From contig JAWCNV010000010.1 of assembly GCA_038848185.1 (NCBI GenBank), positions 1,361-65,360 of the forward strand: a DNA stretch of 64,000 nt, written 5' to 3'. This DNA is from Thermoproteota archaeon (GTDB lineage Archaea > Thermoproteota > EX4484-205 > JAAOZP01). Shown piece by piece: positions 1,492 through 35,205 of this stretch. Numbering within the stretch: position 1 is the first letter of the stretch; the number at the start of each line of letters is the position of its first letter. A model generated the notes under the pieces. That model did no database searches. It worked only from the letters and a program-made list of their open reading frames with translations, and was not told the origin of the DNA. The position numbers were made by a program, and so were the translations under genes.

Positions 1492-2838
1492 ATGGTTGAT
1501 GTAAAGATAAGCATTATAGGAGCTGGCAGCGCCGTTTTCTCCATAAGTCTGATTAAAGACCTGTGTTTAACCCCCAACCTGTCGGGAAGCACCATAAGCC
1601 TAATGGACATAAACCGGGAGAGGCTGGACGCAGTATACTCAATCTGCACCAGGTATGCTGAGGAGACAGGCATTAAGCTGAGGCTGGAGAAGACGCTAAA
1701 CCGAAAGGAATCTCTTAAAGACGCTGATTTCGTCGTTAACACGGTGCTTACAGCCAGCTACGAGAGGCTTAGAGAAGGCTGGTCGATAGCGCGGAAGCTG
1801 GGCTACAGGTTTGGCGGAAGCTACCACATTATGCATGATGAAGCATTCTGGATAAACTTCTACCAGTTCAAATTCTTCGACTCGCTGATGAGAGACATTC
1901 TTGAAATCTGCCCGAACGCATGGTATATTCAGCTTGCAAACCCTGTTCTAGCAGGTGTAACATATCTCGGTAGAAAGTATGGGAACGTTAAAACTATTGG
2001 TCTCTGCCACGGTTTCAGTGGAATCTACAATGTAGTCAGGGTTCTAGGGCTTGAGAGCAGCAAGGTTAGTTTCAAGATACCTGGGGTAAACCATTTCATC
2101 TGGCTGACAAGCTTCACCTACAAGGGGGAGAATGCTTTTCCGCTTTTAGACGATTGGGTTGCTAGAGACGCTGAAAAATACTGGGAGAAAATTAACCCAA
2201 GCAGCGATTTAGGCCCTAAGGCAGTTGACCTCTATAAGAGATTCGGAGTTTTTCCGATTGGTGATACTTGTACTCCTGGAGGAGGCTCATGGCCATGGTG
2301 GTACCATACTGATAAGGAAACTGAAAGAAGGTGGAGGGAGAATCCTGAGGCATGGTGGGAAGGCTTCTTCTCATATGGTCGGAGGACTGTGGAGGAGATA
2401 ATGAGGCTATCCGGAGATACTAGGAGGGTTACAGAAGTTTTCCCGGCTGAGAAATCCGGCGAGATGATCGTGCCCATAATAGAGTCTATAGCCTGCAATA
2501 TTCCAAGGGTTTTCCAGGTTAACATAATTAATTCAGAAGGCTTCGTGCCGGGGGTTCCAGCAGATTTCGAGGTTGAAGTGCCAGCCGAAGTAAGCAGAAG
2601 AGGAGTTCAAGGAATTAGGGTCAACGGTTTACCGAAGCCTTTGGTCGCCTATATTCTTAGGGACCGGGTGGCACCTGTAGAGGTAGAGCTTGAAGCATAT
2701 AAGAATGGTAGCAGGGATAGACTGTTAGAGCTTATAGAGATGGATCCTTGGACAAAGTCCGAAGAGCAAGCGAGAAGCTTACTGAACAAAATACTCTCAT
2801 TACCTCATCATGAAGAAATGCGTCAACATTATAAATAG
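1492..2838 (+). CDS. aglA: Glycoside hydrolase family 4, NAD(+)/Mn-dependent alpha-glucosidase (AglA-like)
   Basis: N-terminal Rossmann motif KISIIGAGSAVFSISLIKDLC...LSGSTISLMDI, CHGF Cys motif and GVNHFIWL. Strong resemblance (from memory) to Thermotoga maritima AglA over the whole N-terminal half. Confidence 0.85.
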   Translation: MVDVKISIIGAGSAVFSISLIKDLCLTPNLSGSTISLMDINRERLDAVYSICTRYAEETGIKLRLEKTLNRKESLKDADFVVNTVLTASYERLREGWSIARKLGYRFGGSYHIMHDEAFWINFYQFKFFDSLMRDILEICPNAWYIQLANPVLAGVTYLGRKYGNVKTIGLCHGFSGIYNVVRVLGLESSKVSFKIPGVNHFIWLTSFTYKGENAFPLLDDWVARDAEKYWEKINPSSDLGPKAVDLYKRFGVFPIGDTCTPGGGSWPWWYHTDKETERRWRENPEAWWEGFFSYGRRTVEEIMRLSGDTRRVTEVFPAEKSGEMIVPIIESIACNIPRVFQVNIINSEGFVPGVPADFEVEVPAEVSRRGVQGIRVNGLPKPLVAYILRDRVAPVEVELEAYKNGSRDRLLELIEMDPWTKSEEQARSLLNKILSLPHHEEMRQHYK

Positions 2839-2923
2839 AGAAGTTGAACGAGTTCAATGAATTTGTTATTTCATTAAACAGGCAGATGGAAAAGTTTTAA
2901 AAACGCTGGCTGGTCGAGACTTC

Positions 2924-3727
2924 ATGAAAATCAATAATCATATTCACACTACGTTCAGCGATGGTTCCTCCAGCATACTGGATTACTGTGAGGCTGCGAT
3001 CCGGAAAGGATTTGGGGAAATAGCTTTCACAGACCATTTAACTATTCATCCAGATGGTTCAGCGGAGCCACACTCCTTAAACATGCTTAAACTGGAGAGT
3101 TATGTGAGAGAGGTGGAAAAGGTTTCAGAGGAATATAGGGATAAGTTAACCGTGAGACTTGGTGTAGAAGTCGACTATATTCCTGGAAATGAGGAGCTGG
3201 TGGAGAAAGTCCTAGGACGCTATGATTTTGACCTTATAATAGGCAGCGTGCACTTCGTCGAGGGAATCTGCATAGATTCTCGGAGGCAGAGGACTTTAAT
3301 GGAGAATGAAATAAGTAAGAATGGTTTTGACAGCTTCTATTCTAAATACCTCTATCTGGTTGGAAAAGCAGTGGAAACAGGTTTCTTCAATATTGTTGGC
3401 CACATGGATCTTGTGAGAATATGGGGGTTTAACCCTAGTAACGGTTTCTCCGAGGAGCAGAAAGTATTAAGCCTTGTCAAGCAGCATGGAACGTGTCTAG
3501 AAGTGTCTTCAAGAGGGTTGCGGCAACCTATTAACTCAATATATCCTTCTCGTAGAATCATGAGAAAGGCTCGTGAACTAGATATACCTGTAACAATAGG
3601 TACTGACGCCCATTCTGTTGAAGAGATAGATTATGCTTACGATTTTTTAAAGAGCTACATAAAAACGTTTGACTACGGCAGTATCGCTACCTTCAGTAAA
3701 CGGAGCATTGTAGAGAAAAAGCTCTGA
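2924..3727 (+). CDS. PHP-domain phosphoesterase (histidinol-phosphatase HisJ-like family)
   Basis: PHP motifs HIHTTFSDG (HxH...D) and FTDH, GSVHF, GHMD and TDAH His-rich metal-ligand motifs; 267 aa. Confidence 0.65.
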   Translation: MKINNHIHTTFSDGSSSILDYCEAAIRKGFGEIAFTDHLTIHPDGSAEPHSLNMLKLESYVREVEKVSEEYRDKLTVRLGVEVDYIPGNEELVEKVLGRYDFDLIIGSVHFVEGICIDSRRQRTLMENEISKNGFDSFYSKYLYLVGKAVETGFFNIVGHMDLVRIWGFNPSNGFSEEQKVLSLVKQHGTCLEVSSRGLRQPINSIYPSRRIMRKARELDIPVTIGTDAHSVEEIDYAYDFLKSYIKTFDYGSIATFSKRSIVEKKL

Positions 3728-4128: not shown

Positions 4129-5148
4129 CTATTCTAAATACTCGTATAGCTCCCTTGGCTGAAGCTCTTTTAACCTGTCTGTTTGTTGAACAATATGCCT
4201 CCTTATGTCTATGCAGAGGTGACATTTAGAGATGTATCCTTCATCTTTCTCCTTGTAGCTGAATTCTTTTACGGCAAAATCATAAAGACTCCGGATGCTT
4301 GTGGTAAGTGCACGTAATATAGGTTTATCCTGAAGAGTTATTCCTTGGGTTAAAGAACTTATGTCTCTAGCATCTCCAAGAGATATTCCGCCGCAATATC
4401 CAGTCATATAGTTAAAGTAGTTGTCTATATGGATATGCCAGTTCCTTGTTAACTCACGTATGCAGGACTCGTTGAAGAACTCTTCAGCGGGATGCTTTAC
4501 GAAAAGATTCTTAAGCTTATAGCACGCTCTTCCCATCGGGAGAAGCTCAGCGTATCGCAATGCCTCCTTGTCTTTTTCCAAATATTTTTCCAAGGTTAGG
4601 GTGCCTTTAATATTGAGGCTTTTAAATCGACGGTAATATGTTTCCTGGTATATCATAGCATTTTCGCCGAAAACTTCCCTACCTATCCTAATGGCTCTTT
4701 CAGTTTGCTCAAAAGGAACCTGCTCCAGTATGAAGGGGTTTACGCTAATCAATATCCCTTTTAACCCTGCCTCCTTCAAAACGGTAAGCTTCTCTTTAAC
4801 ATGTTCTTCGCTTGTGCACCAGAAGCAATTGGTTTCAACAAATGTAGATGGGATTTTAAGCCTGTTCGCAATCTTAACCGCGTCCAGTAGAAGATTGAAG
4901 TTCAGGAAAGGTTCTCCACCAGTGAAATGTAATCCATGGTTTACACTTACATCCTCACGGCCATAAGGGCTTGGCTTGATCCGAGGGGCTAACTGCTTTA
5001 AAATCAACTCGACACCATTCTTAGTAAGCCAGTCTGCTCTCCAAAAAGGTGAACAGGCATACATGCAATGCTTGCACGTGCCTCCACACTTATAGGAAAG
5101 GATTAGTCCTGCCGAGATCGGCTCAGGTATGTGAAGCCGGTTCACCAA
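4129..5148 (-). CDS. Radical SAM domain protein (function unknown; extra C-terminal Cys motifs)
   Basis: N-terminal CGGTCKHCMYAC (CxxxCxxC), SAM-binding FTGGEPFLNF, additional C-terminal cysteines (GYCGG, KCHLC). Starts only 22 nt after the GH5-like gene stop, so likely co-transcribed. Confidence 0.75.
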   Translation of the reverse strand: MVNRLHIPEPISAGLILSYKCGGTCKHCMYACSPFWRADWLTKNGVELILKQLAPRIKPSPYGREDVSVNHGLHFTGGEPFLNFNLLLDAVKIANRLKIPSTFVETNCFWCTSEEHVKEKLTVLKEAGLKGILISVNPFILEQVPFEQTERAIRIGREVFGENAMIYQETYYRRFKSLNIKGTLTLEKYLEKDKEALRYAELLPMGRACYKLKNLFVKHPAEEFFNESCIRELTRNWHIHIDNYFNYMTGYCGGISLGDARDISSLTQGITLQDKPILRALTTSIRSLYDFAVKEFSYKEKDEGYISKCHLCIDIRRHIVQQTDRLKELQPRELYEYLE

Positions 5149-5170: not shown

Positions 5171-7955
5171 TCATCTTTCGAAAACTATCTCATACCAGAT
5201 TGTCCTGAACTCTGACCCGATAGTGAAAGACTTGTAGGAGCCTTCGCTGGATACTGGTACCTCCATGACCCTGTTTCCAAGGTTATCCAGTCCCCAAACC
5301 TTCATCCCCGCCTCAGTTTTGATCTTGATTGTTGCAGGAACCCCCTCAACCAAGGTTGGTGCGGAACCCCAGTCTCTGCCGCATGTTATCCGACCATTAA
5401 ATATCTCAATCTCAGTGAGTTCATTAGCCTCCCACTTTAACAGCTCTCTGCTACCATTATAGTCTCTGAGGGCCATACCCGTGTTTGTCACATAGCCGGC
5501 AGCCACTAGGAGCGCTTTTTCACAATGTTCCAGGTTCTCGCCATCGAGCGACGAGAATGCTATGACGCTCCAGCCATCCAATAGTGAATCACCCGGCTCA
5601 ACAATAATCGTTCCAAAGTCGAATAGTCTCCCCCCTCCGAAGCCTATGATGCCAATACTCTTCGGCGTGTTCACCGTAATAACTCCCCTACCTGCATTCG
5701 ACGTGTCCCATGTCACCTCCTCATTGTCCGACCTGTAGGTTGATCCAGAAACCCTTATGTCGCTGAAGTTGCTGAATTCAGTGCCCCAGACATCTATCTC
5801 CGTCCTATGCAGCAGAGATAACAGGGGGTTCAGCCCTACGTGTTTAGCGTCTGGCAGACCCCAAGCCCAGACCTGCCTATTAAGCAAGTTCATCTCGTCC
5901 TCCCTAGTCAGCTTCGCGACAACAAGCTTGTTTGCTGGCTTAACATCTCCTCTAACAAATATTAGGTGTGCAGGTATCAGCATGGCCATGTGGATAGGGT
6001 GCTGATCCATGTCGAAGAACCCTCTTATCTTCGAGGAGTTCCAATTGCCCCTGCTACCGTAGGCGAACATGAATACTCCATCCCAATCCTGTAGAGCAGC
6101 ATAAGTAGCTATAGTCAAGACTGCTTCAGCATCATACATGTTTGGCGCAGGATGACCATACTCTGTTACGAAATGAGGCTTGTTCAGAACGTTCTTTACG
6201 GCTAAGCCAACTATTGTGCTATCCCTAGGGTTGTTCACCATCGGCTTGTTTTCCACATACCAGTTTACTGGATCCCAAGAAGTACCGGGAAACTGCGGGT
6301 GCTGCCAGTAGGCGTGAGTATCAACTATATCCATTTCCGACATTATGCTCGGTGGGCTGCAGCTGCTGCTGATCGTCCCTATGACGAGTGCTTTTGATCG
6401 TAATTCCTCCTTTATGAAATTGCGCATATTTAGGAAGAACTCCTCCTCCAAGTAGTAGAGAAACTCTAACCAATCGCTGTCGGCATAGGTTCTTCGACGG
6501 TTCACCCAATCTTCGAAGGATACTATCTCAACCGTACCCTGCTCAAGACTCTCCCCCTCCCTGAGGGAGCCCCAAGTGCTTCTAAGGAAGTTTGTGGACC
6601 CATACTTTAATAGGAGATAATTGTTCCACTTGTCCCTCAGCCTGCTCTTGAAAACTTCTGGAAGCTTATCTAGAACGCCCATAAGCCAGGAGTTTATGAG
6701 CCCCTGCTCGTTAACTATCTCGACAAAAGCTATCGCCGGGTCCTCAGCATAGGTCATGCCGGTATAGGGGTTGAAATGGGTAAGAAGTTGTTCAGCATAT
6801 TCCTTCTCAAGATTCTCGATCTCTTCCATGAAGAATCCTAGGGCCTGATGATCCTTCCATTCTATGGACTCAATTTCTCTTGGCAAGCCGTCCTCGGGCG
6901 TAAACCTCCTCGCTACGAGCAGGTTGAGGTCTACATATATCCCGTTCTCCTTAAGCTGGTATATGAAGTAGTCTAGTTTGTCAAGTGCCTCCTCGCTCAG
7001 GAGCCTAGTGCCCAGGAGAGGCTTTAGAGCCCCCCAGCTCGTCCACCCTTGGGAATCCTTCTCGAAATCGAAGATGGGGGTAAAGGCTTGGCTGTTTGGA
7101 TCAGACCATCCAAAAGCGTCTATATAGAAGTTGCCGCTCCACTCCCTACCCGTCCACTCTCCAACTATAACTCCTACTGCTTTCACTCTGGTAGGGTCGC
7201 ATTTGGGAAAGCCTATTTGAGATGGGGGGTTGACGCTCAGATCCCAGCTTAATTGAACCCATTGGTCGCCCTTGCTGCTGAAGCTAGTTATGTCTGGGCC
7301 AGCGTCCCCCCAGTTCCATTTATCGTCCATTATGAATATCTTAGCCTGAATATTTATGGTTGCAGCCTCCTCTGGAACCTTCATCCAAACCGATAGCTTC
7401 TTGTTGCTCAAGTCCATTGGGGTGTCGAGGATGACTTGTACCCCTCCAGTATCGCCCAAGCTGCGGTTGAAGTAGAGTTTAAGGCTTCCTGAGCCATGGT
7501 ATGCTTCAGCAACCGTTTGGGAAACGCCGCCAACTTCAAAAATGTTGTATTCCCAGTTCGCGTCTAAACCATGAAAGCGCACAGCATTAACTCCAAACTT
7601 GGCTAGCCTCGCAGCAATCTTCTCAGCCTCATCCTTCTCCGGGAAACAAGCACCTCCTCCAATATTAACACCTAGGAACTTTATTCTTTTTCCATCGACG
7701 TAAAGATGGCTGTCACTCCCCACCGTTACGTAACCAAGATTCCCAGCAGGCTTTTCGAGTCTCTCACTAAGGCTAACCACCGTTTTACTATAATCATCCC
7801 ATGGAAGGTGAAACGGAAAAATTCTGCTTCCGACTACTATCGGTTCTGGCGTCGTTTGGGTTCCTAGTTTAGGCATGCTTTTGAGAAGGATTAAAAATAA
7901 GATAAAGATTATGATTGCACCCAATACGGTAATGACTGAAACTTCCTTTTTCATT
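5171..7955 (-). CDS. Membrane-anchored extracellular clan GH-A (GH5-like) glycoside hydrolase with inserted CBM-like beta-sandwich domain
   Basis: Start trimmed to MKKEVSVITVLGAIIIFILFLILLK (N-terminal TM/signal anchor; ATG rc at 7953-7955). TIM-barrel motifs FLGVNIGGG, GVNAVRFHGL, GIYVDLNL, acid/base VEIVNEQG (NEP-type) and nucleophile HFVTEYGHP (TE[YF]G). A roughly 155-aa domain (AYHGSGSLKLYF...FYIDAFGW) is inserted after beta-2 and is homologous to the CBM-like module of the 558-aa protein at 33529-35205. Confidence 0.7.
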
Positions 7956-8156
7956 GGGTTTCCTACCTCATGGGAGAAAAATAAACATTGCGGGCATAAG
8001 TGAGGACATTCTAAGTATTCGGATGAGAATTTTCTCCATACGCTATTAGCCGAAAAGATTACATGTTTAGCCTTCACCGCGCAACATCCAGAATGTCCTT
8101 GAAAACTAGCATAATTTAGGTTTATTAGTGCCGTCAAGTCTAAGATAACTTGGAAA

Positions 8157-8864
8157 ATGAAGACGCGTAACTCGGTTTCAGATAAAGATCGAGAGATAAT
8201 CAGGCGCTTAATGGAGGTTCGCACCTCTGACGTGATAGACGCTTTAGACAGGTATAATGTCCACGGTTCAACAATAGTTTCAGAGGAGATAAAGCCTCTT
8301 TTCAACGATATAAAGATGGCTGGGGTTGCATTAACCCTACGCCTCCTTAAGACAAAGGAGCCGATTCCAACAATGACTCCAGAAGAGTATGAACAGTATG
8401 TTGCAGACTGGTATGGTAAAAGAAACAATGCTGAACTCTTCCTAAAGATAGCTGAGCCTGGGCATGTTCTGGTTGCTGACGCAGGCGGATACACTCAAGT
8501 CGGCTTCTGGGGGTCCCTCATAGCATTAATAGCTAGGGATAAGGGTATAACTGGTCTGGTTATAGATGGTGGCTGCAGAGACGTTGGGGAGATTAGAAAG
8601 GAGAGGTTTCCTGTTTTCTGCAGAGGAGTTGGACGTACAGAAACCATTGGCAGACAGGAGCTTCGCCCTGAGGACATTAACATACCTGTTACTATCGGAG
8701 GGGTTCTAGTTGAGCCCGGGGACTTCATAATGGGTGACGATGATGGTGTTGTCGTCATACCTAGAAATCTGGCTGAGGCTGTGTCCCAAAGAGCCTTAAA
8801 ACAGTTTCAGGAGGACCGTAGAAATCAAAAGCCTTATCTTGAAAAATTCGGAATCCGGCTCTAA
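8157..8864 (+). CDS. RraA family protein (RraA/DlpA-like; 4-hydroxy-4-methyl-2-oxoglutarate aldolase / demethylmenaquinone methyltransferase-like fold)
   Basis: 235 aa; VLVADAGG, GGCRDVGEI, FIMGDDDGVVVIP motifs typical of the RraA-like family. Confidence 0.65.
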   Translation: MKTRNSVSDKDREIIRRLMEVRTSDVIDALDRYNVHGSTIVSEEIKPLFNDIKMAGVALTLRLLKTKEPIPTMTPEEYEQYVADWYGKRNNAELFLKIAEPGHVLVADAGGYTQVGFWGSLIALIARDKGITGLVIDGGCRDVGEIRKERFPVFCRGVGRTETIGRQELRPEDINIPVTIGGVLVEPGDFIMGDDDGVVVIPRNLAEAVSQRALKQFQEDRRNQKPYLEKFGIRL

Positions 8865-8878
8865 GGGAGGCTGAAAGA

Positions 8879-9325
8879 ATGGAGTACTGGGAAACCCGAT
8901 TAGGGAGAATAATCGTCTTCAGGTGCGACAGGGGAGAGGACCTTTTAAAAACTATTGAGAAAGTTGCTAACGAGAATAATGTTGTTAACGGAGTCATTGT
9001 CTCGGCGATAGGCACCCTTGGAAAATGCCGTATACACCGAGTTACCTCAAAAGGTCTGCCTCCTGAGGAAGCGTATATTGAGATAGATGGGCCGCTAGAA
9101 GTCAACTCTGTTGACGGGATTATTGCAAACGGGAAGCTTCATGCACATATCTCTGTTTCAGACAGTAAGGCAACTTATGGAGGCCACTTGGAACCCGGAA
9201 GCCCAGTCCTATATTTAGCTGAGATAGTTTTAGCTGAGATGATCGGTGTCTTTTTCAACCGTGAATTCGATGAGAAAACCCGTCTAAGCCTCTTGAAAGA
9301 GGCTTCAAAGGGGAAAGATGATTAG
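8879..9325 (+). CDS. PPC (DUF296) domain protein
   Basis: 148 aa; IVFRCDRGEDLL...GVIVSAIGTL...HAHISVSD pattern of the plants-and-prokaryotes-conserved PPC domain. Confidence 0.5.
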   Translation: MEYWETRLGRIIVFRCDRGEDLLKTIEKVANENNVVNGVIVSAIGTLGKCRIHRVTSKGLPPEEAYIEIDGPLEVNSVDGIIANGKLHAHISVSDSKATYGGHLEPGSPVLYLAEIVLAEMIGVFFNREFDEKTRLSLLKEASKGKDD

Positions 9326-9419
9326 GACTGTCTACTCAAAGTGAATTATTGCCCACCAGTGTCCTGCAAACATTGTATGAAAAACTATTTAATTAGCTTT
9401 TAAAGAGAACCAACGTAGC

Positions 9420-9773
9420 ATGGTTAACTACATTCAGGTTTTTACATGTACTGAAAAGAAGGAGGATGCTGAAAAGATTGCTAGAACACTGTTAGAGAGG
9501 AGACTGGCAGGTTGCATTCAGATAATTGGTCCAGTATCAAGCTTATACTGGTGGAAAGGGAAAATCGAGGAGGCTGAGGAATGGCTCTGCATAATAAAAA
9601 GTGAGAAAAGCCTTTACGAGGAGCTTGAGAAAACGATTAAGGAGAATCATCCGTATGCTGTTCCGGAAATAATAAGTATTCCAATCATTACTGGGAGTAA
9701 AGAATATCTTAATTGGCTTAGTGATATACTTTTAAGTCAAAATAAAGGAAGTGGTGAAGATAATAGCTATTGA
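9420..9773 (+). CDS. cutA: Divalent-cation tolerance protein CutA
   Basis: 117 aa; VFTCTEKKEDAEKIARTLLERRLAGCIQIIGPVSSLYWWKGKIEE...PYAVPEIISIPI matches the CutA1 family signature. Confidence 0.85.
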   Translation: MVNYIQVFTCTEKKEDAEKIARTLLERRLAGCIQIIGPVSSLYWWKGKIEEAEEWLCIIKSEKSLYEELEKTIKENHPYAVPEIISIPIITGSKEYLNWLSDILLSQNKGSGEDNSY

Positions 9774-9862: not shown

Positions 9863-11056
9863 CTAAACAGTATGCTTCTTCTTTCTTCGAACATAAAGGA
9901 TTATTATTACGAGTATTACTACAACTATTATTGGAAGCGCCAATTGAAGGATCCTGCTTGTCATACCTCCACTATTCTCCGCTTCCTCGGCTTCTTTCAT
10001 AATGTTTAAAGATTCGCTCAACAAGCTTCTCGCTCCCTCAATATCTCCAACCATTATTTTATCGAAAGCGGAATGCGCTTTTAGATAAGCTTCACGAGCA
10101 AGGTTCTTGGCAGAGGAGTCTTTATACGAGGCTATGGCGTTTCTCGCAGAATCCTCCGCCTTTCCTAGTTCAACAATAAGGTCTATCATGTCCTTGTTTC
10201 CCTCGTAGCCTCCTAGACCATGTATATAGAGTGCAATCCTAAGGGTCTTAGAATCGCCCTTCTTCATCGCACCTTTACCGAAATCAGTTAGCCTGAAATG
10301 TGCATTGTAATTAGTGTATGTCTCGTTACTCCCCCTGTTATCGCCTATGCCAAAACCTTTGAATAGGGATGGAGCTATGTTTATCATGGTTATTCCTTCA
10401 CCCAGAGTGCTGAAATCCATCCAGTAGGTCATTCGGCTAGTGTCGTAAAGAGATATATTAGGGTCATATTCAGCCGGAAGATTCACTCTTACTACGGTAT
10501 TCTCTCTAAAGACTTCTGCATAACTACCTCCAAAAAGGCTTACGGGGAACTCCCAGAATCCCCAGCCTACCCTGTTTATATCGCTCGAGTCTTCAACAGC
10601 CGTTAGATTTGAATCTATAAGTATCAAACCATTTTTTGAAACCGTTATCTTTGTGACGATATCTAGAACATGGACATTGTATCTGCCGAAAAACGTTGCT
10701 GTCACGTAATCAGGCTTTTCCTCTACAATTGGTGAAGCAGTTGCATTAGATCCATAAACCTGTTGCCAGTCGCCCTCCCAAATAAACCATCCTCCCGCGC
10801 CAGTGAAATTTATCTGCGATATTGCTATGCTAGAAATGCCTCCGTTGCTATTGATCGTTATTTTAAATTCCTCCGCGGTTCCACTTATAACGGTTATGGT
10901 AACGTTTGTCTCACCGGCCACGACTAAAAGCCTCTTGGCTTCTTGCACATACGGGTTCAAAACTTTAGCAAGTTGTGGAGATGCAAACCCGATTAGAGGA
11001 TTCAGCGTGAGAATAATCAGGAAAACCAGCATTAACACTGCAAACTTGTTCTTCAA
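9863..11056 (-). CDS. Secreted protein with C-terminal TM anchor (signal peptide ... IIVVVILVIIILYVRRKKKHTV); member of a three-paralog surface-protein family in this window
   Basis: N-terminal signal MKNKFAVLMLVFLIILTL, C-terminal hydrophobic helix plus basic tail. Paralogous to 32106-33263 and to the N-terminal domain of 33529-35205 (shared NGGI...KNGLILI and LYIHGxGGYEGNK blocks). Divergently transcribed from cassette A. Confidence 0.7.
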   Translation of the reverse strand: MKNKFAVLMLVFLIILTLNPLIGFASPQLAKVLNPYVQEAKRLLVVAGETNVTITVISGTAEEFKITINSNGGISSIAISQINFTGAGGWFIWEGDWQQVYGSNATASPIVEEKPDYVTATFFGRYNVHVLDIVTKITVSKNGLILIDSNLTAVEDSSDINRVGWGFWEFPVSLFGGSYAEVFRENTVVRVNLPAEYDPNISLYDTSRMTYWMDFSTLGEGITMINIAPSLFKGFGIGDNRGSNETYTNYNAHFRLTDFGKGAMKKGDSKTLRIALYIHGLGGYEGNKDMIDLIVELGKAEDSARNAIASYKDSSAKNLAREAYLKAHSAFDKIMVGDIEGARSLLSESLNIMKEAEEAENSGGMTSRILQLALPIIVVVILVIIILYVRRKKKHTV

Positions 11057-11396: not shown

Positions 11397-14300
11397 ATGC
11401 GCCACATATCGTTTACCGGTCTCAGGACCCCCCTGATACTTTCACTATTGGTCTTGATGCTTTTAACGCAGCTGACTTTCGTAACAGGATCCGTATCTTC
11501 GAGCAAAAGTAGTCCAGTCCAAATAAGCGATATTGGTAGTTTGAGCTTTGAAAACATCTTGGGGCATGTTGAAACCCTATCAGGATTCGGTTCCCGTGTT
11601 GTCGGTTACGATGGTTTCTTTGAGGCTGCTGACTATATTAAAGCATACTGGTCCTCTTTAGGCTTTGAGGTACGTGAAGAGAAATTTGACATGGTGACGC
11701 CTATCGTTGAAGACTGCTCTATAAAAGTAGAGACGGGTGATGGAACCATATTAGAGTTTGAGGCTTATCCACTTTGGCCTAATCACGTAAATCCTTGTCC
11801 CTACACAAGTCCTGAAGAGGGAGACAGGCTCATATACGTTGAAGGAGGGATTCCGGAAGATTTTGACGGCTCAAACCCGAAGGAAGCATTCGTCCTAATG
11901 GAATTTAATAATCGTTGGTATTGGAAGAACGCTGCTCTATTCGGTGCAAAAGGCATAATATTTCTTGAACCGGAAGAAACTACCGGTATCCAAGCTATTC
12001 AAAAAGTGTTCAGTATTCCAATAAACTTCCCTCGCCTATATGTAAGAGGCCAAACCGCCTCATATCTGAAGAATCTTGTAAAGCAAAGAGGAGAAGTCAA
12101 GATATGGGTAAACTCCAAGATGAAATGGGAACAGAAGAAAGTATCCAACATAATCGCAGTCATAGAGGGTTCTAACCCTGATACGAGAGACAAAGTGGCT
12201 GTCATAGGTGCTTACTATGATTCCTGGTCGATTGTGCCACAGCTTTCACCAGGTGCCACAGACTCCATAGGGATATCTTTCCTGTTAGAGCTTGGCAGGC
12301 TTTTAAAGGATACTCCTCCGGAAAGAACTGTCTGGCTAGTAGCTTTCGCAGGGCATTATCAAGGTTTGGCAGGTGGCAGGGAATTCATGGAGAAACATTT
12401 TGACGAGTTAGCTAGTAAACTTGAGATGATGTTAAGCGTTGACTTGGCGAGTGAGAGCGATATTTTAGCTGTTTACGCAACCGGTTCAATGTATGGGTAC
12501 TTGCAGCCACAGACGCTTTTAGCCAGATACAGTAGGTGGTTAGGTGATATCTTTTCAAAGTGGAAACCTGCTATTGAGAGTGCTATGGGTGAGGAGTATC
12601 ATGTGATAAACGGGGTCACTTGGTCAGACCCGAATTGGATAAGAAGTTCTCGCCCCTTCGAGCCTTTTCCAATATACTTCGAAGCCGAGATTTTCACCGA
12701 AGCCTGTTACGGTGGTGGTTTAGGTTTCGTTACAACGAACACCTTCAAAATATACCAGTATACGCCGTTAGACACAGTCGACAAGTTGATTCAAGATAAT
12801 ATTAGGAAACAAGTAAGCTTCCTGTGGCCAATACTGTACAATTGCGTTAACATGGAGGTAACTTACTTCCTTGCTCCAAAAAGGATAGCAACTGACTGGG
12901 GGTTAATCACTCTAACGATTCAGCTGGCTACGTATGATAAGATTACCGACTGGTTTAGAAGCTACTATCATGAGGATGCGATTTTTCTGGTTTCTGTTAG
13001 TGGGATTTCGTCTTCTCAGCAGCAAGTGGTTTACGCAGGTTTCTCAGCCCCCTCTTCAATAGGCTCTTTAAGAAGTGCTGTGGTACAGGGTGTGACAGTT
13101 GGACTGTTTGCCTCCTCTTCTGGTGTAAGCCAAGGGCAGGTTCAGCAGGGTTCGCTTGCAACCCCTCTTGGGTTCACCATGGTTGCTAAGCCTGATGCTC
13201 AAGGGCAGGTAGTTATTAAAGGAATAAGGCCTTTAACAGGTATTGACGTGCAAGCATACGTTATTGATCCGGAAACTGGAAAAATATTATGTGCAACAGA
13301 CACCGGGCCATTTGGAACCACCAAACTTAGGTATGGTGGTCTTTTCGGACAAGCCGCTGCAGCCGCAGCACCAACCCTTACCGCAGGTATGGAGGCACTA
13401 GTTTATCTCGCAGCATCAGGTGAGGGCGCTCGCTCTTTTAACCTCTTTGCCCCGCCATGGTGGCGATACGTTCCAATCATTAACGTTTCGTCGATCGCGA
13501 TATTAGGGCTTATTGATCCAGTTAACATTAAGGATGCGGCAGGACTGACACTAGAGGTCTACAACTTCATTTCTCACAGCTACCTTATTTGGAGAGATAC
13601 TCTTTCACCATGGCCAGAAACCATGGCTTTCATTCAACCAGATGTTCCTGTCGAAATCTTGATAAAAAGCGGAGGACGAATAGTGGCTATTTTAAACAAT
13701 GCCTCCAGCAAGTATCCTGAGGGTCAAGGCTACCTGCTTAAGCATGGTGAGACAAAAATCTTAACGATGTTTGATGCTGTAGATAGTGTGTTTTATCTTG
13801 CTCAGGCTAGAGCCGGCTTTTTGATGGAAAGAATGTCAGCAAATCCGAAGCTTGTACTCCATCTTGAGAAGATGAACAGTTTCAGAAAAGCCTCGGAAGA
13901 AGATCTGCAGAATGGGAAACTAGGTGAGTTCTACTCCCTATCTATTGCCTGCTGGCAATATGCGTTGCATGCTTACCTTTCTTCCTTCGAGCTAACATAT
14001 GACGTTGTTAATACAGCGTCTTTCTTCTTCTTCCTATCGGCCGCCTTCATAATTCTGGTTGCTAGGTTAATCGCAAGAAGAGAAGCCGGGGTAAAGCGTA
14101 TGATGTATATAATCGCTTTATTCTTAGTGGTAAATGTGCTTTTAGGATTAATTCATCCTGGTTACGCTATTTCATCAAATATCTGGATGCTTATAAATGG
14201 GTTGGCCATAATCCTGTTCTCAATCCTCTTGGTTTACGTTGTGATAGATGAGTTTAATGATGCTGTGAAAAGCATAAGCCAATCAATCCTTGGCTATCAT

Positions 14301-16055
14301 AAATCTGACATTGAGAGAAACAGCTTCATATTCTCCGCTTTCTCCATCGGTGTGGAAAACCTCAAAAAGAGGTATATTAGAACTGCTTTAACATTATCGA
14401 CCATCATAATAACCGTCCTTGCAATGACCATGTTCACAACTATGGGTTTAGTCGTTACGTCATATAAGACAGAGTTAGGCACGATGCCTGCTTACACAGG
14501 TTTCCTCATAAAGAAACCATTGCCTGACATCATTAATGTTCCCCTATCCGAGCTTTATATGATGGGAATAAATGATATTGCGTCACAAGGGCTCGGAGAA
14601 TTCCAAGCTTGCCCAAGAACTTGGATATATCCTCCGGGCATGAAGATGTTTGTAACATGGGCTAATGCGACGAAGTCAAGCATTAGGGCAATATTAGGAA
14701 TCACTCCAGAGGAGGCTAAATTATTAGAGCCTGCGCTTTCCTCTGGCACTACTTTCATGGAAGGTGCGGAGCGAGTAGCTTTGGTTAGTAGCGGTCTCGC
14801 CAGCCAGCTGAGTGAAGACCTTGGTATAGAGGTTAAGGTTGGTACTTCGATTAGTATTTACGGTATGCCTGTCACAGTCGTAGGGATCCTAGACGATGAG
14901 TTAAGCAAATCTGTTTTCAAAGACTTGGATGGTGGCGATTTTGTGCCCCTCAACCCAACCTCCTCACTTACGAGCGGAGCGCCGGTTTACCTCGATGTTA
15001 AAGAGGTACTAATTGTTCCCTATGATTTTGCAAGAAATGTCTTCAACGCTCAGCCTAACATCATCGTTTTACACTCCGGCACATCTATTAAAACTGAGGA
15101 TTTGGGTCAGCGTGCTTATGACTTGGCTTTGATACTACCCTTTGACATCTTCTTCGGCTCAATGCAGCATGAGTCCTCAGGCAAGGTTGCAACCAGAGAT
15201 GTATACTTAATCAGTGGAACTGAAAACATGCTGGTGCCTTTAACAATCTCTGCCTTAACGATTTTATCAATGATGCTGAGTGCAGTTTACGAAAGAACAA
15301 AGGAGATTACGACGCTTAGTACTCTAGGGCTTTCGCCACGCCACATCGGGTCAATCTTCCTAATAGAGTCAATAGCACTGGCTTTTATCGGCAGCTTCAT
15401 CGGCTATATAACGGGGGCAGGAGTAATGACTCTCTTATGGAGGCTGAACATGTTTCCCAAAGAATTGATTCCGAATGTGTCTTCAGGAGTAATAATTATA
15501 GTCATGGGTGTGATAATATTAGTTACGGTACTATCATCTGTTTACCCAATAGTTAGAGCCTCAAAACTAGCAACCCCGTCGTTACTGAGAAAGTGGCAGA
15601 TCGGAAGCAAACCGGTTGAAGACAGGTGGAGCGTAGCTTTACCCTTCAACGCTACTACCTCAGAGACGCTAGGGGTCTTAGAGTTTCTAGCTGAGTATTT
15701 TGAGGCTTCGTCTTCCACAAGCGGGAGGGCAGGACTCTTCATCCTCCTTAAGCCTGCAGAAATAATACAGGAGGATAATAGAAAAATCTTGAAAGTGCAG
15801 TTACAACTATCACCATTTGACGCTGGAATAATTCAAAATCTTGAAGTAGTTTGCCAGAGGATTGGTACCGATAGATATGGCTTCGGAATCCTGATAAATA
15901 GACTATTGGGCACGGAAAACCTTTGGGTTACGGCCAACAAGAACCTTCTCAGCGAACTTCGTAAACAGTTCCTATTCTGGAGGGCTCTTGGCGTAAGTGA
16001 TAAGGCAAAGTATATAGAGCGAGGGGAACGGAGGCAGAGCACTAGTAAGGAGTGA
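11397..16055 (+). CDS. Giant membrane protein: signal peptide, PA domain, degenerate M28-peptidase-like ectodomain, 3 TM, MacB/FtsX-type permease unit, conserved non-ATPase cytoplasmic C-terminal domain (cassette A, 'L' subunit)
   Basis: 1552 aa. Signal MRHISFTGLRTPLILSLLVLMLL. PA-like GDRLIYVEGG...AALFGAKGIIFLEPEE. M28-like VAVIGAYYDSWS...PGATDSIGISFLLELGR with metal ligands substituted (H to Y; DD to TD; EE to GH). MacB-type TM1 LKKRYIRTALTLSTIIITVLAMTMFT (around 14360-14460). FtsX core AVYERTKEITTLSTLGLSPRHIGSIFLIESIALAFIGSFIGY (around 15280-15400). About 170-aa C-terminal tail, no Walker A. Confidence 0.7.
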   Translation: MRHISFTGLRTPLILSLLVLMLLTQLTFVTGSVSSSKSSPVQISDIGSLSFENILGHVETLSGFGSRVVGYDGFFEAADYIKAYWSSLGFEVREEKFDMVTPIVEDCSIKVETGDGTILEFEAYPLWPNHVNPCPYTSPEEGDRLIYVEGGIPEDFDGSNPKEAFVLMEFNNRWYWKNAALFGAKGIIFLEPEETTGIQAIQKVFSIPINFPRLYVRGQTASYLKNLVKQRGEVKIWVNSKMKWEQKKVSNIIAVIEGSNPDTRDKVAVIGAYYDSWSIVPQLSPGATDSIGISFLLELGRLLKDTPPERTVWLVAFAGHYQGLAGGREFMEKHFDELASKLEMMLSVDLASESDILAVYATGSMYGYLQPQTLLARYSRWLGDIFSKWKPAIESAMGEEYHVINGVTWSDPNWIRSSRPFEPFPIYFEAEIFTEACYGGGLGFVTTNTFKIYQYTPLDTVDKLIQDNIRKQVSFLWPILYNCVNMEVTYFLAPKRIATDWGLITLTIQLATYDKITDWFRSYYHEDAIFLVSVSGISSSQQQVVYAGFSAPSSIGSLRSAVVQGVTVGLFASSSGVSQGQVQQGSLATPLGFTMVAKPDAQGQVVIKGIRPLTGIDVQAYVIDPETGKILCATDTGPFGTTKLRYGGLFGQAAAAAAPTLTAGMEALVYLAASGEGARSFNLFAPPWWRYVPIINVSSIAILGLIDPVNIKDAAGLTLEVYNFISHSYLIWRDTLSPWPETMAFIQPDVPVEILIKSGGRIVAILNNASSKYPEGQGYLLKHGETKILTMFDAVDSVFYLAQARAGFLMERMSANPKLVLHLEKMNSFRKASEEDLQNGKLGEFYSLSIACWQYALHAYLSSFELTYDVVNTASFFFFLSAAFIILVARLIARREAGVKRMMYIIALFLVVNVLLGLIHPGYAISSNIWMLINGLAIILFSILLVYVVIDEFNDAVKSISQSILGYHKSDIERNSFIFSAFSIGVENLKKRYIRTALTLSTIIITVLAMTMFTTMGLVVTSYKTELGTMPAYTGFLIKKPLPDIINVPLSELYMMGINDIASQGLGEFQACPRTWIYPPGMKMFVTWANATKSSIRAILGITPEEAKLLEPALSSGTTFMEGAERVALVSSGLASQLSEDLGIEVKVGTSISIYGMPVTVVGILDDELSKSVFKDLDGGDFVPLNPTSSLTSGAPVYLDVKEVLIVPYDFARNVFNAQPNIIVLHSGTSIKTEDLGQRAYDLALILPFDIFFGSMQHESSGKVATRDVYLISGTENMLVPLTISALTILSMMLSAVYERTKEITTLSTLGLSPRHIGSIFLIESIALAFIGSFIGYITGAGVMTLLWRLNMFPKELIPNVSSGVIIIVMGVIILVTVLSSVYPIVRASKLATPSLLRKWQIGSKPVEDRWSVALPFNATTSETLGVLEFLAEYFEASSSTSGRAGLFILLKPAEIIQEDNRKILKVQLQLSPFDAGIIQNLEVVCQRIGTDRYGFGILINRLLGTENLWVTANKNLLSELRKQFLFWRALGVSDKAKYIERGERRQSTSKE

Positions 16056-16061
16056 TAAGGA

Positions 16062-33528: not shown

Positions 33529-35205
33529 TTATTTCTTCCTCTTATTCTTATAGATAATCCCTACGATCATCATGACCACTATGAGTAACAGCCCGATTAT
33601 AGCGTATTGCATGGGTGTTGGAGCTGGTGTCGGTGTAGGAGTTGATGTGGGAGTGGGAGTCGGGGTTGAAGTTGGTGTGGAAGTAGGTGTCGGTGTTGGT
33701 GTGACTGTTGGCGCCGAAGTAGTAAAGTAGTCTATGTAGAGATCGCCGCTCCACGCCGCAACATTCCACTGACCTATTTGAACACCCAGTTTTCTCACAG
33801 CATTTTCCCAAGTAATGTCTTCTCCACCGAGGTCCCAAGTAACTTGAGTCCAGCTTCCTCCAGCTAGGTTTATCGCTGCACTATTCTTCCAGTCCCAGGT
33901 GGCGCTCTGCATGAATATTTGTGCTTTAGCATCTTGCGGAACCCAGACCCATACGGAGAGTAGCTTATCCTGAAAATCTGCTAGGTTGCCCTCAGCAAAA
34001 TATACACATACTCCACCAGCAGCACCGTTTGATGCATCGAAATATGTCTTTAAGCACCCAGCTCCATGATATGCCTTCTCAACGGTCCACATAGCTGAAG
34101 TAAGAGCACCTTGCCCGACGTTTGGGTCGACATCCCAGCCCTGAGTATCTGTCTCAAAATCAAACAGCACCTCCCCAAATACCGGGGTTGGTGTAGGGGT
34201 AGGGGTGGGTTTAGGCGTCGGAGTAGAAGTGGGGATGGGTGTTGGCGATGGAGTAACAGTTGGTAAACCCAAAACTTCTCTTATTGCATTCTCCACCTCA
34301 ACGGTGTATCCTCCATATTGCTGGTAGACCTCTAAGACCCGTTCCACGATATTGGTGTAGGGTTCATAACCGCCAGTGCCATGGAAGAAAAGTGCCATCT
34401 CAGTTACTCTTTCCTCGTTTTCAAGCATAGCGCCCTGTCCCCATCCACCGTGCCAGAAGGTTACGATGAATTTCAGTTCATCCCAGCCTCTTCCATCCTG
34501 TACTATAAAGGCAAGGTTAGCCTCAGGGTTAAGGTTCATAAGGGTGACACCGCCCTCATTCACGCTTAGGTCTACCCAGTTTGGCGGAGGTTTGATAATT
34601 TGAGTGACATCTTGATTTATAAATGTGGATGGTAGGTTTAATTCTTCGGTGCCCCACAAATAATTAATATATATGTTTTTACCGGAATACTCCTCTGTCT
34701 TTAACTTGACAACCCAGCCTGTTGTCCTTATGTTAGGGGCTCCTCCAGATGGTGCTCTCATCGTCAGCCTTATGAATACGAAGCCGAACTTAGTTACCGT
34801 CACCTCCGTAACCAAACTGACAAGATGGGTTTTCGTCTGACTGTAACACGTTATTTTGGTATAGGTATCCCTCTCCTCTATTGTTGGTTCATCGACAACT
34901 GTTCCCCATGTCTGTTCCCAGTCATCCATCCAAATGAAGCCTGCTGCTCTTTCAGCAACCTCTACTCCTCGGCTTCTAAGCATGTTTATTCCACCAGTTT
35001 TCCAGAGCTCGATGTAGAAGAGTTCATTATCCTGAGGATCATAAACCCAGACATCTATTATATTACCGGTTTCACGTGGCTGAACCACGATTTTATTTTC
35101 CTCCTGCGCATAAACTTGAATCGGAAAAGGTTGGAAACAAAGCTGTATAAAGTTTAGACAGACGAACATTACTAGAATCATTATTGTTTCCTTCCTCTTG
35201 ATCAT
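33529..35205 (-). CDS. Modular surface protein: signal peptide, surface-paralog domain, Pro/Thr linker, CBM-like beta-sandwich, Pro/Thr linker, C-terminal TM anchor (cassette B terminal gene)
   Basis: 558 aa. Domain 1 homologous to the 397/395-aa paralogs (LWKTGGINML...TKFGFVFI; ALFFHGTGGYEPY). Linker 1 PTVTPSPTPIPTSTPTPKPTPTPTPTP (about 34198-34282). Domain 2 FDFETDTQGW...EKAYHGAGCLKTYF...LSVWVWVPQDA...LYIDYF homologous to the insert of the GH5-like enzyme at 5171-7955. Linker 2 PTVTPTPTPTSTPTSTPTPTPTSTPTPTPAPTP (about 33613-33717). C-terminal TM IIGLLLIVVMMIVGIIYKNKRKK. Confidence 0.75.
   Translation of the reverse strand: MIKRKETIMILVMFVCLNFIQLCFQPFPIQVYAQEENKIVVQPRETGNIIDVWVYDPQDNELFYIELWKTGGINMLRSRGVEVAERAAGFIWMDDWEQTWGTVVDEPTIEERDTYTKITCYSQTKTHLVSLVTEVTVTKFGFVFIRLTMRAPSGGAPNIRTTGWVVKLKTEEYSGKNIYINYLWGTEELNLPSTFINQDVTQIIKPPPNWVDLSVNEGGVTLMNLNPEANLAFIVQDGRGWDELKFIVTFWHGGWGQGAMLENEERVTEMALFFHGTGGYEPYTNIVERVLEVYQQYGGYTVEVENAIREVLGLPTVTPSPTPIPTSTPTPKPTPTPTPTPVFGEVLFDFETDTQGWDVDPNVGQGALTSAMWTVEKAYHGAGCLKTYFDASNGAAGGVCVYFAEGNLADFQDKLLSVWVWVPQDAKAQIFMQSATWDWKNSAAINLAGGSWTQVTWDLGGEDITWENAVRKLGVQIGQWNVAAWSGDLYIDYFTTSAPTVTPTPTPTSTPTSTPTPTPTSTPTPTPAPTPMQYAIIGLLLIVVMMIVGIIYKNKRKK
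33600..33720 (-). repeat. Low-complexity coding repeat (GGTGTnGGn)n encoding Pro/Thr-rich linker
   Basis: Visible in sequence as tandem GGTGTTGGAGCTGGTGTCGGTGTAGGAGTTGATGTGGGAGTGGGAGTCGGGGTTGAAGTTGGTGTGGAAGTAGGTGTCGGTGTTGGTGTG; a second copy at about 34190-34285. Confidence 0.8.

Follow-up and report, generated by a model that had tools for sequence, protein, structure and literature searches.

Does this archaeal locus encode a GH5-type hydrolase with a CBM lodged inside its TIM barrel, and is the radical SAM protein encoded next to it the maturase of that enzyme? Both ideas stem from an initial annotation of the window (the whole stretch of DNA that was analysed, 64,000 nt). The reading that we consider quite probable keeps part of this picture: the gene would specify an extracytoplasmic, anchored or secreted, retaining endo-β-glycanase of family GH148 that has lost its CBM4 and gained a permuted PF21253-type module, with the radical SAM gene unrelated to it. 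The features on which the argument draws all lie on the minus strand:

5171-7954 (-): GH148-family gene, 927 aa, stop codon at 5171-5173; delimited by the open reading frame and start codon
7880-7939 (-): hydrophobic stretch near the N-terminus, aa 6-25, either a signal anchor or a signal peptide; from sequence reading and an AF2 helix at 2-26
7535-7822 (-): segment with R126, H128 and D131; invariant or near-invariant columns, AF2 pLDDT >90
7010-7534 (-): inserted β-sandwich module in the β2-α2 loop, aa 141-315, 175 aa; PF21253 (Mann_GBD_bact)-like CBM fold, circularly permuted
7010-7075 (-): displaced module strands β1-β2, aa 294-315 (IFDFEKDSQGW TSWGALKPLLG), C-terminal to the module core
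6035-7009 (-): remaining barrel, aa 316 to ~640, with α2 at 321-336, β3 at 340-344, β4 at 408-412 and β7 at 594-600; AF2 pLDDT mostly >90
6707-6709 (-): E416, predicted acid/base, in VEIVNEQG (aa 411-418); invariant column, equivalent to EngU E239
6161-6163 (-): E598, predicted nucleophile, in VTEYGHP (aa 596-602); invariant column, equivalent to EngU E581
6566-6571 (-): canonical insertion site of the GH148 family, empty here, between aa 462 and 463; most members have a CBM4 of ~160 aa at this point
5174-6034 (-): C-terminal β-rich domains, aa ~641-927; AF2 strands with pLDDT >90, conserved family-wide
4129-5148 (-): radical SAM gene, 339 aa; PF04055 at 31.5 bits, judged to lie outside the GH148 system
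33724-34173 (-): canonical, non-permuted copy of the module in a 558-aa protein, aa 345-494; PF21253 at 34.1 bits

The gene had originally been drawn from 5171 to 7955. Its stop end stands, while the start has to be moved to the ATG at 7954, upstream of which lie GAGGT and a T-rich box. The protein is known from a Thermoproteota MAG as a hypothetical protein (100 % match), and 492 homologues were found. The membrane anchor proposed earlier corresponds to the hydrophobic segment at aa 6-25, which may equally be a signal peptide and is followed by a Thr/Pro-rich linker; a comparable hydrophobic N-terminus is present in every homologue of the family alignment. At the other end, the alignment with all homologues runs through to the terminal residues (…TIWYEI…). 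In the full-length AF2 model the mean pLDDT is 84, and the core exceeds 90 (AF2 models were assessed through summary statistics).

Sequence comparison assigns the protein to GH148, the EngU family of clan GH-A retaining-type glycosidases, and not to GH5, so that the initial annotation was right about the clan but not about the family. The homologues recovered at E = 1e-186 to 0 include Fervidibacter proteins, one from Latescibacteria DG_63 and the “CenC domain protein” of Ignisphaera aggregans, and the best matches of EngU named in the GH148 paper come from Fervidibacter, Ignisphaera and Latescibacteria taxa (PMC5725463). EngU itself was compared via ten peptides back-translated from published mutagenic primers, all of which match the P0099/P0092 rows of a family alignment (A1). 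Placement of the peptides around D123 (VRFHHM[D]MQEFPN), E239 (F.EINN[E]NGLVHA) and E581 (KPFSVT[E]YNHSAP) maps these residues to D131, E416 and E598 of the window protein. In EngU the corresponding mutants retain 3 % (D123A), 0 % (E239A) and 0 % (E581A) of the activity, and the enzyme has a predicted signal peptide and requires its C-terminus for activity (PMC5725463). The two motifs already singled out in the initial annotation, VEIVNEQG and VTEYGHP, are present, and the columns of their glutamates are invariant across 91 homologues; E416 on β4 would be the acid/base and E598 on β7 the nucleophile. The barrel thus has the acid/base Glu after β4 and the nucleophile Glu after β7 that are characteristic of clan GH-A, and the conserved C-terminal domain of GH148 follows it.

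The likeness to EngU (PMC5725463) and to Fsa04715Cel of Fervidibacter sacchari, whose architecture has been typed as GH148+CBM4+GH148 (PMC11535203), extends over the full length including the C-terminal β domains and the clan GH-A barrel. EngU and GH148 at large also share with the window protein the catalytic glutamates within the motifs NE(N/Q)G and VTEY, a signal or anchor at the N-terminus, an origin in thermophile-associated uncultured lineages and a CBM-fold module embedded in the catalytic module. Foldseek matches the barrel to GH5, GH42, GH50 and GH35 structures. A GH5 assignment was rejected: PF00150 gives no match at E<=0.1, and the similarity to GH5 mannanases is weak and local (just 21-24 bits, aa 319-419), being confined to β3-β4 of the barrel. 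GH42 was likewise rejected, PF02449 giving no match on the window protein. Some distant members of the family carry a precomputed partial PF02449 match.

The second peculiarity of the protein is the module inside the barrel. The initial annotation had located it after β2 and not N-terminal to the barrel, and both the family alignments and AF2 agree. Between “NIFE” (aa 137-140) and “TRLL” (from aa 316) there are ~174 residues in the window protein and in one homologue, P0002, as against 4-5 in every other member; in the AF2 model the insert lies between β2 (aa 124-128) and α2 (aa 321-336), and its flanks are modelled at pLDDT >90. Its limits had been given as nt 7055-7523, or ~155 aa, which is the right location but slightly short of the actual extent (7010-7534, 175 aa), because the insert includes the C-terminal piece IFDFEKDSQGW TSWGALKPLLG. 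P0002 is 80 % identical to the window protein and the sole other carrier in the GH148 alignments.

With just two sequence clusters containing it, the insert might be suspected to stem from a chimeric assembly, a mobile element or something intein-like, and to be absent from the mature enzyme. However, it is in frame and occurs in assemblies made independently of one another (NCBI, Logan and ENA), and it is 80 % identical between its two carriers, with a dN/dS against P0002 of 0.14 (0.09 for the remaining protein), which shows purifying selection. No similarity to inteins or transposases was found in the Pfam search, and AF2 folds the insert confidently as a β-sandwich when it is modelled alone with 21 module rows (pLDDT 87, pTM 0.84). 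The low values in the full-length model (pLDDT 30-75) arise because just two alignment rows cover the insert. Independent assemblies, selection and a confident fold together effectively refute the artefact, whose probability we regard as negligible.

What kind of module is it? The insert is homologous to a segment of an anchored surface protein of 558 aa encoded elsewhere in the window (33529-35205, minus strand), as had been noticed earlier: BLASTP gives 36 % identity over 137 aa with E=2e-20. In the 558-aa protein, which has no recognisable enzyme domain and holds the sole other copy of the module within the window, PF21253 matches at 34.1 bits over aa 348-492, profile positions 1-142. On the native insert the same profile scores 23.2-23.3 bits, against a gathering threshold of 27 bits, and misses its first positions. 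When the C-terminal 22-26 residues of the insert are moved to the front, the score rises to 33.9 bits and the match begins at profile position 1. The sequence order of the insert therefore indicates a PF21253-type β-sandwich in circularly permuted form, running from β3 to the last strand, through a 10-residue linker, and then to β1-β2, the reverse of the order in the 558-aa protein. A doubled canonical module aligns with the insert in one contiguous HSP (q5-165) that spans the junction, and doubling raises the scores of P0242 from 157 to 169 bits and of the 558-aa module from 87 to 100. Two-piece matches in reversed order were obtained with P0242, P0243, P0249, P0256, P0259 and P0263.

An exhaustive HMMER search with the insert was used to collect relatives of the module. 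The same permuted module, 70 % identical, is N-terminal in a GH12 enzyme (P0241), and a Trp-rich stretch, DDKWNWGDAGPDITSF, is identical in the two. Compared with PF21253 as found in the alkaline mannanase of Bacillus sp. JAMB-602 (PDB 1wky) and with the copy in the 558-aa protein, the insert appears to belong to the same β-sandwich family; it differs in that β1-β2 have moved to the C-terminus and in being internal instead of terminal. The likeliest origin of the permuted form would be a frame-shifted excerpt from a tandem array of PF21253-type modules. A literature search on permuted CBMs returned nothing pertinent, which does not prove that none has been described.

The initial annotation had regarded an inserted CBM as uncommon. 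Since an internal CBM is an already published hallmark of GH148 (PMC5725463), the insertion is not new as such; unusual are the loop that is used, the absence of CBM4 and the permutation. EngU and its relatives have a CBM4 (PF02018) between β4 and α4, whereas the window protein is devoid of it and has its PF21253-like permuted module in the β2-α2 loop. PF02018 is present in most homologues, and the GH148 family profile matches the CBM4 structures 1gui, 3p6b, 3k4z and 1k42 at the canonical site. On the window protein the Pfam search gave no PF02018 match, and its row in the second family alignment (A2) shows a gap of 186 columns at that position. According to the 2017 report, GH148 proteins never occur without an insert at the β4 site (PMC5725463). 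In contrast to this statement, the window protein, P0003 and many members of ~750 aa have none there. P0003, the closest relative outside the pair of P0002 and the window protein, is altogether free of inserts, as are many of the ~750-aa members.

These distributions suggest an order of events. P0002, P0003 and the window protein form a monophyletic group nested in a CBM4-bearing clade (NJ bootstrap 100/100). An ancestral GH148 lineage would have had a CBM4 between β4 and α4 and lost it; a different CBM-fold module would then have been gained in the β2-α2 loop, on the same face of the catalytic barrel. Distance trees and parsimony are consistent with this sequence of loss and gain. A bolder formulation, whose chances we judge evenly balanced, is that we have here a natural instance of a CBM being replaced by loop-hopping within a TIM-barrel enzyme: the ancestral CBM4 was discarded, and a permuted CBM of another family came to occupy another of the active-site loops. 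The permutation, which probably derives from a tandem-module array, would have created a self-contained unit that may be used internally (GH148) or terminally (GH12).

β-Sandwich binding modules in TIM-barrel loops are also described, in excerpts of the respective reports, for the GH26 enzymes BcWH2_GH26/BuGH26 (PMC13357471), for the GH13 enzyme SusG with its CBM58 and for GH10 examples. They involve other GH families, other CBM families and other loops, and the same excerpts report no permuted CBM. What sets the window protein apart is the combination of a missing CBM4 after β4 with a different, permuted module in the β2-α2 loop. For CBMs embedded in a catalytic barrel GH148 serves as the textbook example; two of its enzymes have been characterised, and no structure has been solved. 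The present variant shows that the CBM4 insert is dispensable in this family, having apparently been lost several times, that a second loop of the barrel can take a whole domain, and that nature has used a circularly permuted CBM for such an insertion. This is of interest for how domain insertions originate and for engineering thermostable glucanases that have a binding module built in. Still, no new kind of biology is opened here; the extra appeal of the locus came from the proposed radical SAM maturase, which does not hold (see below).

Does the insert bind carbohydrate? It would hold a polysaccharide chain beside the active-site cleft and may, in doing so, take over the role of the lost CBM4. 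Its best Foldseek matches are CBM44/30, the CBM of the 1wky mannanase (TM 0.57) and CBM22/11/16/28. An alternative that we consider unlikely is a structural, lid or oligomerisation domain that shapes the pocket or mediates assembly or anchoring without binding carbohydrate. The precedent is subdomain H of GH42, to which the GH148 paper likens the inserts of the family (PMC5725463). Like the insert, subdomain H of the Thermus A4-β-Gal (cited in PMC5725463) is an additional element that sits in a β-to-α loop at the catalytic face of a clan GH-A barrel; unlike the insert it comes after β4, lacks the CBM fold and serves trimer formation. A non-binding role would also agree with the sub-threshold PF21253 score of the native insert, with P0003 and the many ~750-aa members that manage without any insert, and with the presence of the module on a surface protein without any recognisable enzyme domain. 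However, the folds that match best are those of bona fide CBMs, the permuted module on the GH12 glucanase occupies a terminal, hence classic, CBM position, and the identity of DDKWNWGDAGPDITSF in P0241 fits a conserved binding surface. We therefore favour a binding module. If binding proves true, the module could become the founding member of a CBM family that is permuted by nature and provide a template for engineered internal CBMs.

As to the substrate, analogy with the characterised relatives, 40-48 % identical in the core, makes β-glucans (mixed-linkage glucan, xyloglucan or amorphous cellulose) the most likely choice and suggests the activity itself. EngU prefers mixed-linkage β-glucan (PMC5725463), and Fsa04715Cel is active on β-glucan, gellan and xyloglucan (PMC11535203). 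The enzyme could instead be a β-mannanase or act on glucomannan, in view of the GH5 mannanases 8gf3, 3pz9, 6tn6 and 4qp0, which are the sole PDB sequence matches of the barrel and also stand at the top of the Foldseek list; moreover, the family of the insert is named for a galactose-binding-domain-like module of a mannanase, and 1wky is its second-best fold match. At E 1e-4 to 1e-5 and 12-17 % identity, however, the PDB matches are weak and mirror membership of a common clan; the substrates of the two characterised GH148 enzymes are β-glucans or xyloglucan, and the closest copy of the module sits on a GH12 enzyme. GH12 comprises endoglucanases and xyloglucanases. A mannan-directed activity is accordingly improbable, and β-glucans remain the preferred substrates.

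The remaining question concerns the radical SAM gene, which indeed starts on the same strand 22 nt downstream of the GH148 stop codon (25 nt with the GTG start used by NCBI). The initial annotation raised the possibility that the two are co-transcribed and that an anSME-like or SPASM-type maturase acts on the exported protein; the target in such a functional pair would be the hydrolase or its insert. The radical SAM protein does contain a CX3CX2C motif and four invariant C-terminal cysteines, which could hold an auxiliary cluster but do not follow the SPASM pattern, and what weak similarity it has is to the peptide-modifying enzyme YydG. With YydG and the SPASM and anSME maturases it shares the CX3CX2C core and the extra conserved cysteines in the C-terminal half; it differs from them in that the similarity is restricted to the generic core, and in standing alone, with no conserved adjoining substrate gene. 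The suggested Pfam search on 4129-5148 gave Radical_SAM (PF04055) at 31.5 bits and a weak Fer4_12 match only. The best NCBIfam match, YydG, reaches 51 bits against a cut-off of 300 and covers just the N-terminal core, as does the YydG match in a PDB profile search; neither Pfam nor NCBIfam gave a SPASM, twitch or anSME match. Moreover, the hydrolase appears to lack a sulfatase-type Cys/Ser motif and a leader peptide.

Comparison of loci argues in the same direction. The radical SAM proteins form a family of uniform length (~339 aa) and 58-75 % identity that is widespread in archaea, occurring in Brockarchaeota, Bathyarchaeia, Methanocellales and Asgard archaea (Thor-, Frey- and Jordarchaeia). 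At the locus of the only other GH148 with the insert (L006), the radical SAM gene lies ~2 kb away, with three genes in between, two of which are encoded on the opposite strand, and is divergent from RraA. At L001 the distance is 2.3 kb, again with three genes between. A GH148 gene is present without a radical SAM gene nearby at L003-5, L007 and L008, and the reverse holds for L009 and L010, where the radical SAM neighbourhoods vary. Gene order thus shows no conservation of the adjacency, not even among the closest relatives, and the radical SAM gene is apparently independent of the GH148 gene. It would be a housekeeping-type archaeal gene that became a neighbour through local rearrangement, and not the maturase of the GH148 enzyme; a functional pair seems to us highly improbable. 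Within the 22-nt gap there is no recognisable terminator, and a scan for sigma-70 promoters and intrinsic terminators stayed at chance level, this bacterial-type model being inapplicable to archaea. Given the short gap and the lack of an obvious terminator, transcripts of the GH148 gene may read through into the radical SAM gene at this locus.

Other sugar-related genes around the GH148 genes provide a further lead on the substrate. A GH4 gene lies nearby in the window and at L007 and L008, GH3 genes occur at L001 and L002, and L001 in addition has a gene for a PfkB-type sugar kinase.

The 927-aa protein is a new architectural variant of a known glycoside hydrolase family, GH148, in which the CBM4 module has been lost and a permuted PF21253-like module occupies the beta2-alpha2 loop; it should be of moderate interest to specialists in CAZymes and protein evolution. 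Its gene lies within a minus-strand ORF (5171..8494), where translation from an internal ATG at 7954, with GAGGT and a T-rich box upstream, gives the 927-aa product; the initial annotation had placed this start one base away, at 7955. A hydrophobic stretch of 20 residues (aa 6-25) at the N-terminus is followed by a Thr/Pro-rich part. The two catalytic motifs recognized earlier, VEIVNEQG and VTEYGHP, are found at aa 411-418 and 596-602. E416 and E598 are invariant across 91 aligned homologues, among which D131 is nearly so (at least 90 %). The original observation is confirmed, with small corrections to the coordinates.

The family assignment had to be changed. Pfam contains no glycoside hydrolase family matching the protein, its sole match being a sub-threshold one to PF21253 ‘Mann_GBD_bact’ (aa 129-241), and a sequence search of the PDB gave weak local similarity to GH5 mannanases alone, stopping at the NE motif. 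The proposed GH5 membership is thus not borne out, and the family is GH148; the earlier interpretation was half right, in that the enzyme does belong to clan GH-A and does have a CBM-like module inside it. A search of a large protein collection yielded 492 relatives, including a 100 % identical hypothetical protein from a Thermoproteota MAG, many proteins of ~905 aa with PF02018 (CBM_4_9) and others of ~750 aa without it. Among those named are the Ignisphaera aggregans ‘Carbohydrate-binding CenC domain protein’ and a Latescibacteria DG_63 protein, and further relatives come from Brockarchaeota, Bathyarchaeia, Armatimonadota and Fervidibacter. The best matches of EngU, the founding GH148 enzyme, were reported in the same taxa (PMC5725463), and Fsa04715Cel of Fervidibacter sacchari has been typed GH148+CBM4+GH148 (PMC11535203). 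EngU was compared through peptides translated from the published mutagenic and cloning primers rather than through its full sequence.

EngU peptides derived from primers
VRFHHM[D123]MQEFPN
ALDRL[D151]YLIAQ
ADGLPK[E183]IEQL
PAIAFV[E235]INNE
EINN[E239]NGLVHA
KPFSVT[E581]YNHSAP
NTYSS[E593]AFLLL
YAALQ[D605]WDAIYAF
GEEMLRNANF

These peptides match two rows of the family alignment A1 (P0099/P0092, Fervidibacter and Armatimonadota) almost exactly, which ties the protein to GH148 and sets the residue equivalences: E416 corresponds to EngU E239 (acid/base), E598 to E581 (nucleophile) and D131 to D123. In EngU, E239A and the E581 mutant retain 0 % activity and the D123 mutant 3 %.

With the 91-sequence alignment as input, AF2 gives a model (mean pLDDT 84, core mostly >90) in which the elements come in this order.

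Elements of the AF2 model
aa 93-99, beta1
aa 107-119, alpha1
aa 124-128, beta2
aa 141-313, low-confidence stretch
aa 321-336, alpha2
aa 340-344, beta3
aa 408-412, beta4
aa 594-600, beta7
C-terminal, beta domains

Since the low-confidence stretch falls between beta2 and alpha2, the insert had rightly been located after beta2 and ahead of the next helix. In TIM-barrel glycosidases, the beta2-alpha2 loop is part of the C-terminal, catalytic face. Foldseek matches in the PDB (GH5 mannanases, GH42 beta-galactosidase, GH50 agarases and GH35 glucosaminidases) all belong to clan GH-A; neither Foldseek nor a family-profile search found a GH148 structure among the PDB matches.

The module is, as had been stated, common to the GH148 protein and to the anchored 558-aa surface protein encoded at 33529..35205 (-) (BLASTP, 36 % identity, E=2e-20). 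The order of its segments differs between the two: in the 558-aa protein, ‘LFDFETDTQGW’ (aa 347-357) comes ahead of the core at aa 374-494, and in the GH, ‘IFDFEKDSQGW’ (aa 294-304) comes after the core at aa 147-281. Three tests support a circular permutation of the insert. When the C-terminal piece is placed in front and PF21253 is rescored, the score rises from 23.2 to 33.9 bits and coverage of the profile from positions 17-113 to 1-113; the module of P0241, a GH12 protein, goes from 21.0 to 30.9 bits. In phmmer searches against module homologues, single-module proteins give two-piece matches in reversed order, while tandem-module proteins give contiguous ones. Finally, BLASTP against a tandemly doubled canonical module produces a single HSP across the junction (169 vs 157 bits, 100 vs 87 bits). 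The insert thus runs from beta3 to its final strand, continues through the 10-residue linker SDPNSQAFTP into beta1-beta2, and rejoins the barrel at T316-R317.

The module is rare, with 25 matches at E<=1e-3 in 1.84 billion representative proteins, and among these the permuted arrangement is common only to the window protein, P0002 (another GH148) and P0241. The latter (533 aa) consists of a signal peptide, directly followed by a permuted module 70 % identical to the insert, a Thr/Pro linker, the GH12 domain and, at the C-terminus, a membrane anchor. P0241 and the insert agree in every residue of the stretch DDKWNWGDAGPDITSF. Modelled with 21 module rows, the insert reaches pLDDT 87 and pTM 0.84 (about 82-91 in the C-terminal piece), and its best fold matches in the PDB are CBM44/CBM30, the CBM of alkaline mannanase 1wky, CBM22, CBM11, CBM16 and CBM28. 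In the comparison with P0002, the window protein shows a dN/dS of 0.14 in the insert (0.12 in its displaced strands) and of 0.09 elsewhere, making the insert a selected part of the protein. A purely structural role is a less likely, rival reading of this insert, against which stand the fold matches to carbohydrate-binding modules. The insert begins 10 residues after D131, which corresponds to a residue that matters for EngU activity.

In EngU and close relatives, CBM4 sits between beta4 and alpha4 (PMC5725463). The canonical insertion appears in alignments A1 and A2 as a block of ~160 residues between window residues 462 and 463, present in most members, and there the family profile hits crystal structures of CBM4 (1gui, 3p6b, 3k4z and 1k42). 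The window protein has nothing inserted at this site in either alignment; it and P0002 (80 % identical) instead carry ~174 residues after ‘NIFE’, where all other members have 4-5. P0003, with neither insert, is 76 % identical in a BLASTP local alignment and 73 % across the whole alignment. NJ trees based on 675 core columns in common place these three proteins in one clade nested among the CBM4-bearing P0005-P0020 (100/100 bootstraps); its parsimonious history would be loss of CBM4 and, later, acquisition of a new module in a different loop. Other insert-less proteins (P0032, P0050, P0044/48/49/62, P0067) likewise branch from within CBM4 forms, implying repeated loss of CBM4, and there is a deep clade of ~750-aa enzymes without any insert. 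Consequently, the claim made in 2017 that every GH148 has an insert at the beta4 site (PMC5725463) no longer holds. Many family members of ~730-760 aa have no insertion in the catalytic module (P0032, P0044, P0048, P0050, P0062, P0067, P0089-P0120 in A1/A2), and P0065 (1410 aa) fuses two complete insert-less GH148 units in tandem in one polypeptide.

The window enzyme is most likely an extracellular retaining endo-beta-glycanase, whose module would probably bind a glycan chain beside the cleft in place of the lost CBM4. The closest copy of the module is on a GH12, a family of endoglucanases and xyloglucanases. EngU prefers mixed-linkage beta-glucan (PMC5725463), and Fsa04715Cel is active on beta-glucan, gellan and xyloglucan (PMC11535203). 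Mannan is a rival substrate, with the name of the PF21253 profile and the local GH5 mannanase similarity on one side and these GH148 activities on the other. Nearby glycoside hydrolase genes are GH4 (window and contigs L007/L008) and GH3 (L001 and L002), L001 also having a PfkB-type sugar-kinase gene.

The radical SAM ORF (4129..5148 (-), 339 aa) indeed starts 22 nt past the GH stop codon on the same strand, or 25 nt with the GTG start of the NCBI annotation. Its product has a CX3CX2C motif (C21, C25, C28); C32, C229, C252, C309 and C312 are invariant in alignment A4 and C111 nearly so, and its description as having a Cys-rich C-terminus is accurate. The suggestion that it may mature the GH is not supported: none of the SPASM, twitch and anSME models hits the protein, its only similarity is to the generic YydG core, and the adjacency is not conserved in the related contigs compared. 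C229, C252, C309 and C312 are not a SPASM motif; the protein belongs to an uncharacterised, highly conserved archaeal family of which curated models cover the generic core alone. The uniform length (~339 aa) and 58-75 % identity across Thermoproteota, Brockarchaeota, Bathyarchaeia, Methanocellales and Asgard lineages point to a conserved cellular role.

Gene order around GH148 and radical SAM genes
Window: CutA1, PCC, RraA, then GH148, radical SAM, PHP
L006: CutA1(-), PCC(-), RraA(-), radical SAM(+), small ORF(+), Pur_DNA_glyco(-), PHP(-), GH148(+)
L007 and L008 (P0003/P0004): GH148 adjoins RraA, GH4 near, no radical SAM
L001: GH148 and radical SAM 2.3 kb apart, three genes between
L003-5: no radical SAM
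L009 and L010: radical SAM homologues, unrelated neighbours

L006 encodes P0002, the only other GH148 with this insert; in this contig, a divergent intergenic region belongs to the radical SAM gene itself, with the GH gene at another place. Judged from gene order, the adjacency in the window is a local rearrangement; read-through transcription from the GH148 gene into the radical SAM gene is possible, and a functional link is not supported. A loosely syntenic block (RraA-like, PCC, CutA1, radical SAM, PHP, Pur_DNA_glyco, GH4) recurs in the window (1492-3727 (+), 8157-9773 (+)), L001, L006 and L007. GH148 occupies another position within it in every case, a hint that the gene has been moved locally more than once.

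The window also contains two paralogous multi-gene clusters.

Features of the clusters and adjoining genes
11397-24760 (+), first cluster
11397-16055, giant ~1550-aa Peptidase_M28 + FtsX-type permease fusion
17981-20032, DUF6785/DUF6784 protein
36020-47749 (-), second cluster
36020-37993, DUF6785/DUF6784 protein
43124-47749, second ~1550-aa fusion
9863-11056 (-), 397-aa protein
33529-35205 (-), 558-aa protein

MacB_PCD matches only the first-cluster fusion. Each cluster further encodes an FtsX protein of ~1010 aa and one of ~626/654 aa that matches nothing in Pfam. In contigs L003-L005, the GH148 homologue has a cluster of this kind immediately upstream. One member of a paralogous pair, the 397-aa and 558-aa proteins (25 % identity over 300 aa, E=2e-26), adjoins each M28/FtsX cluster. 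Both members have a signal peptide and a C-terminal membrane anchor; the canonical PF21253-like module is in the 558-aa copy only, between two Thr/Pro linkers.
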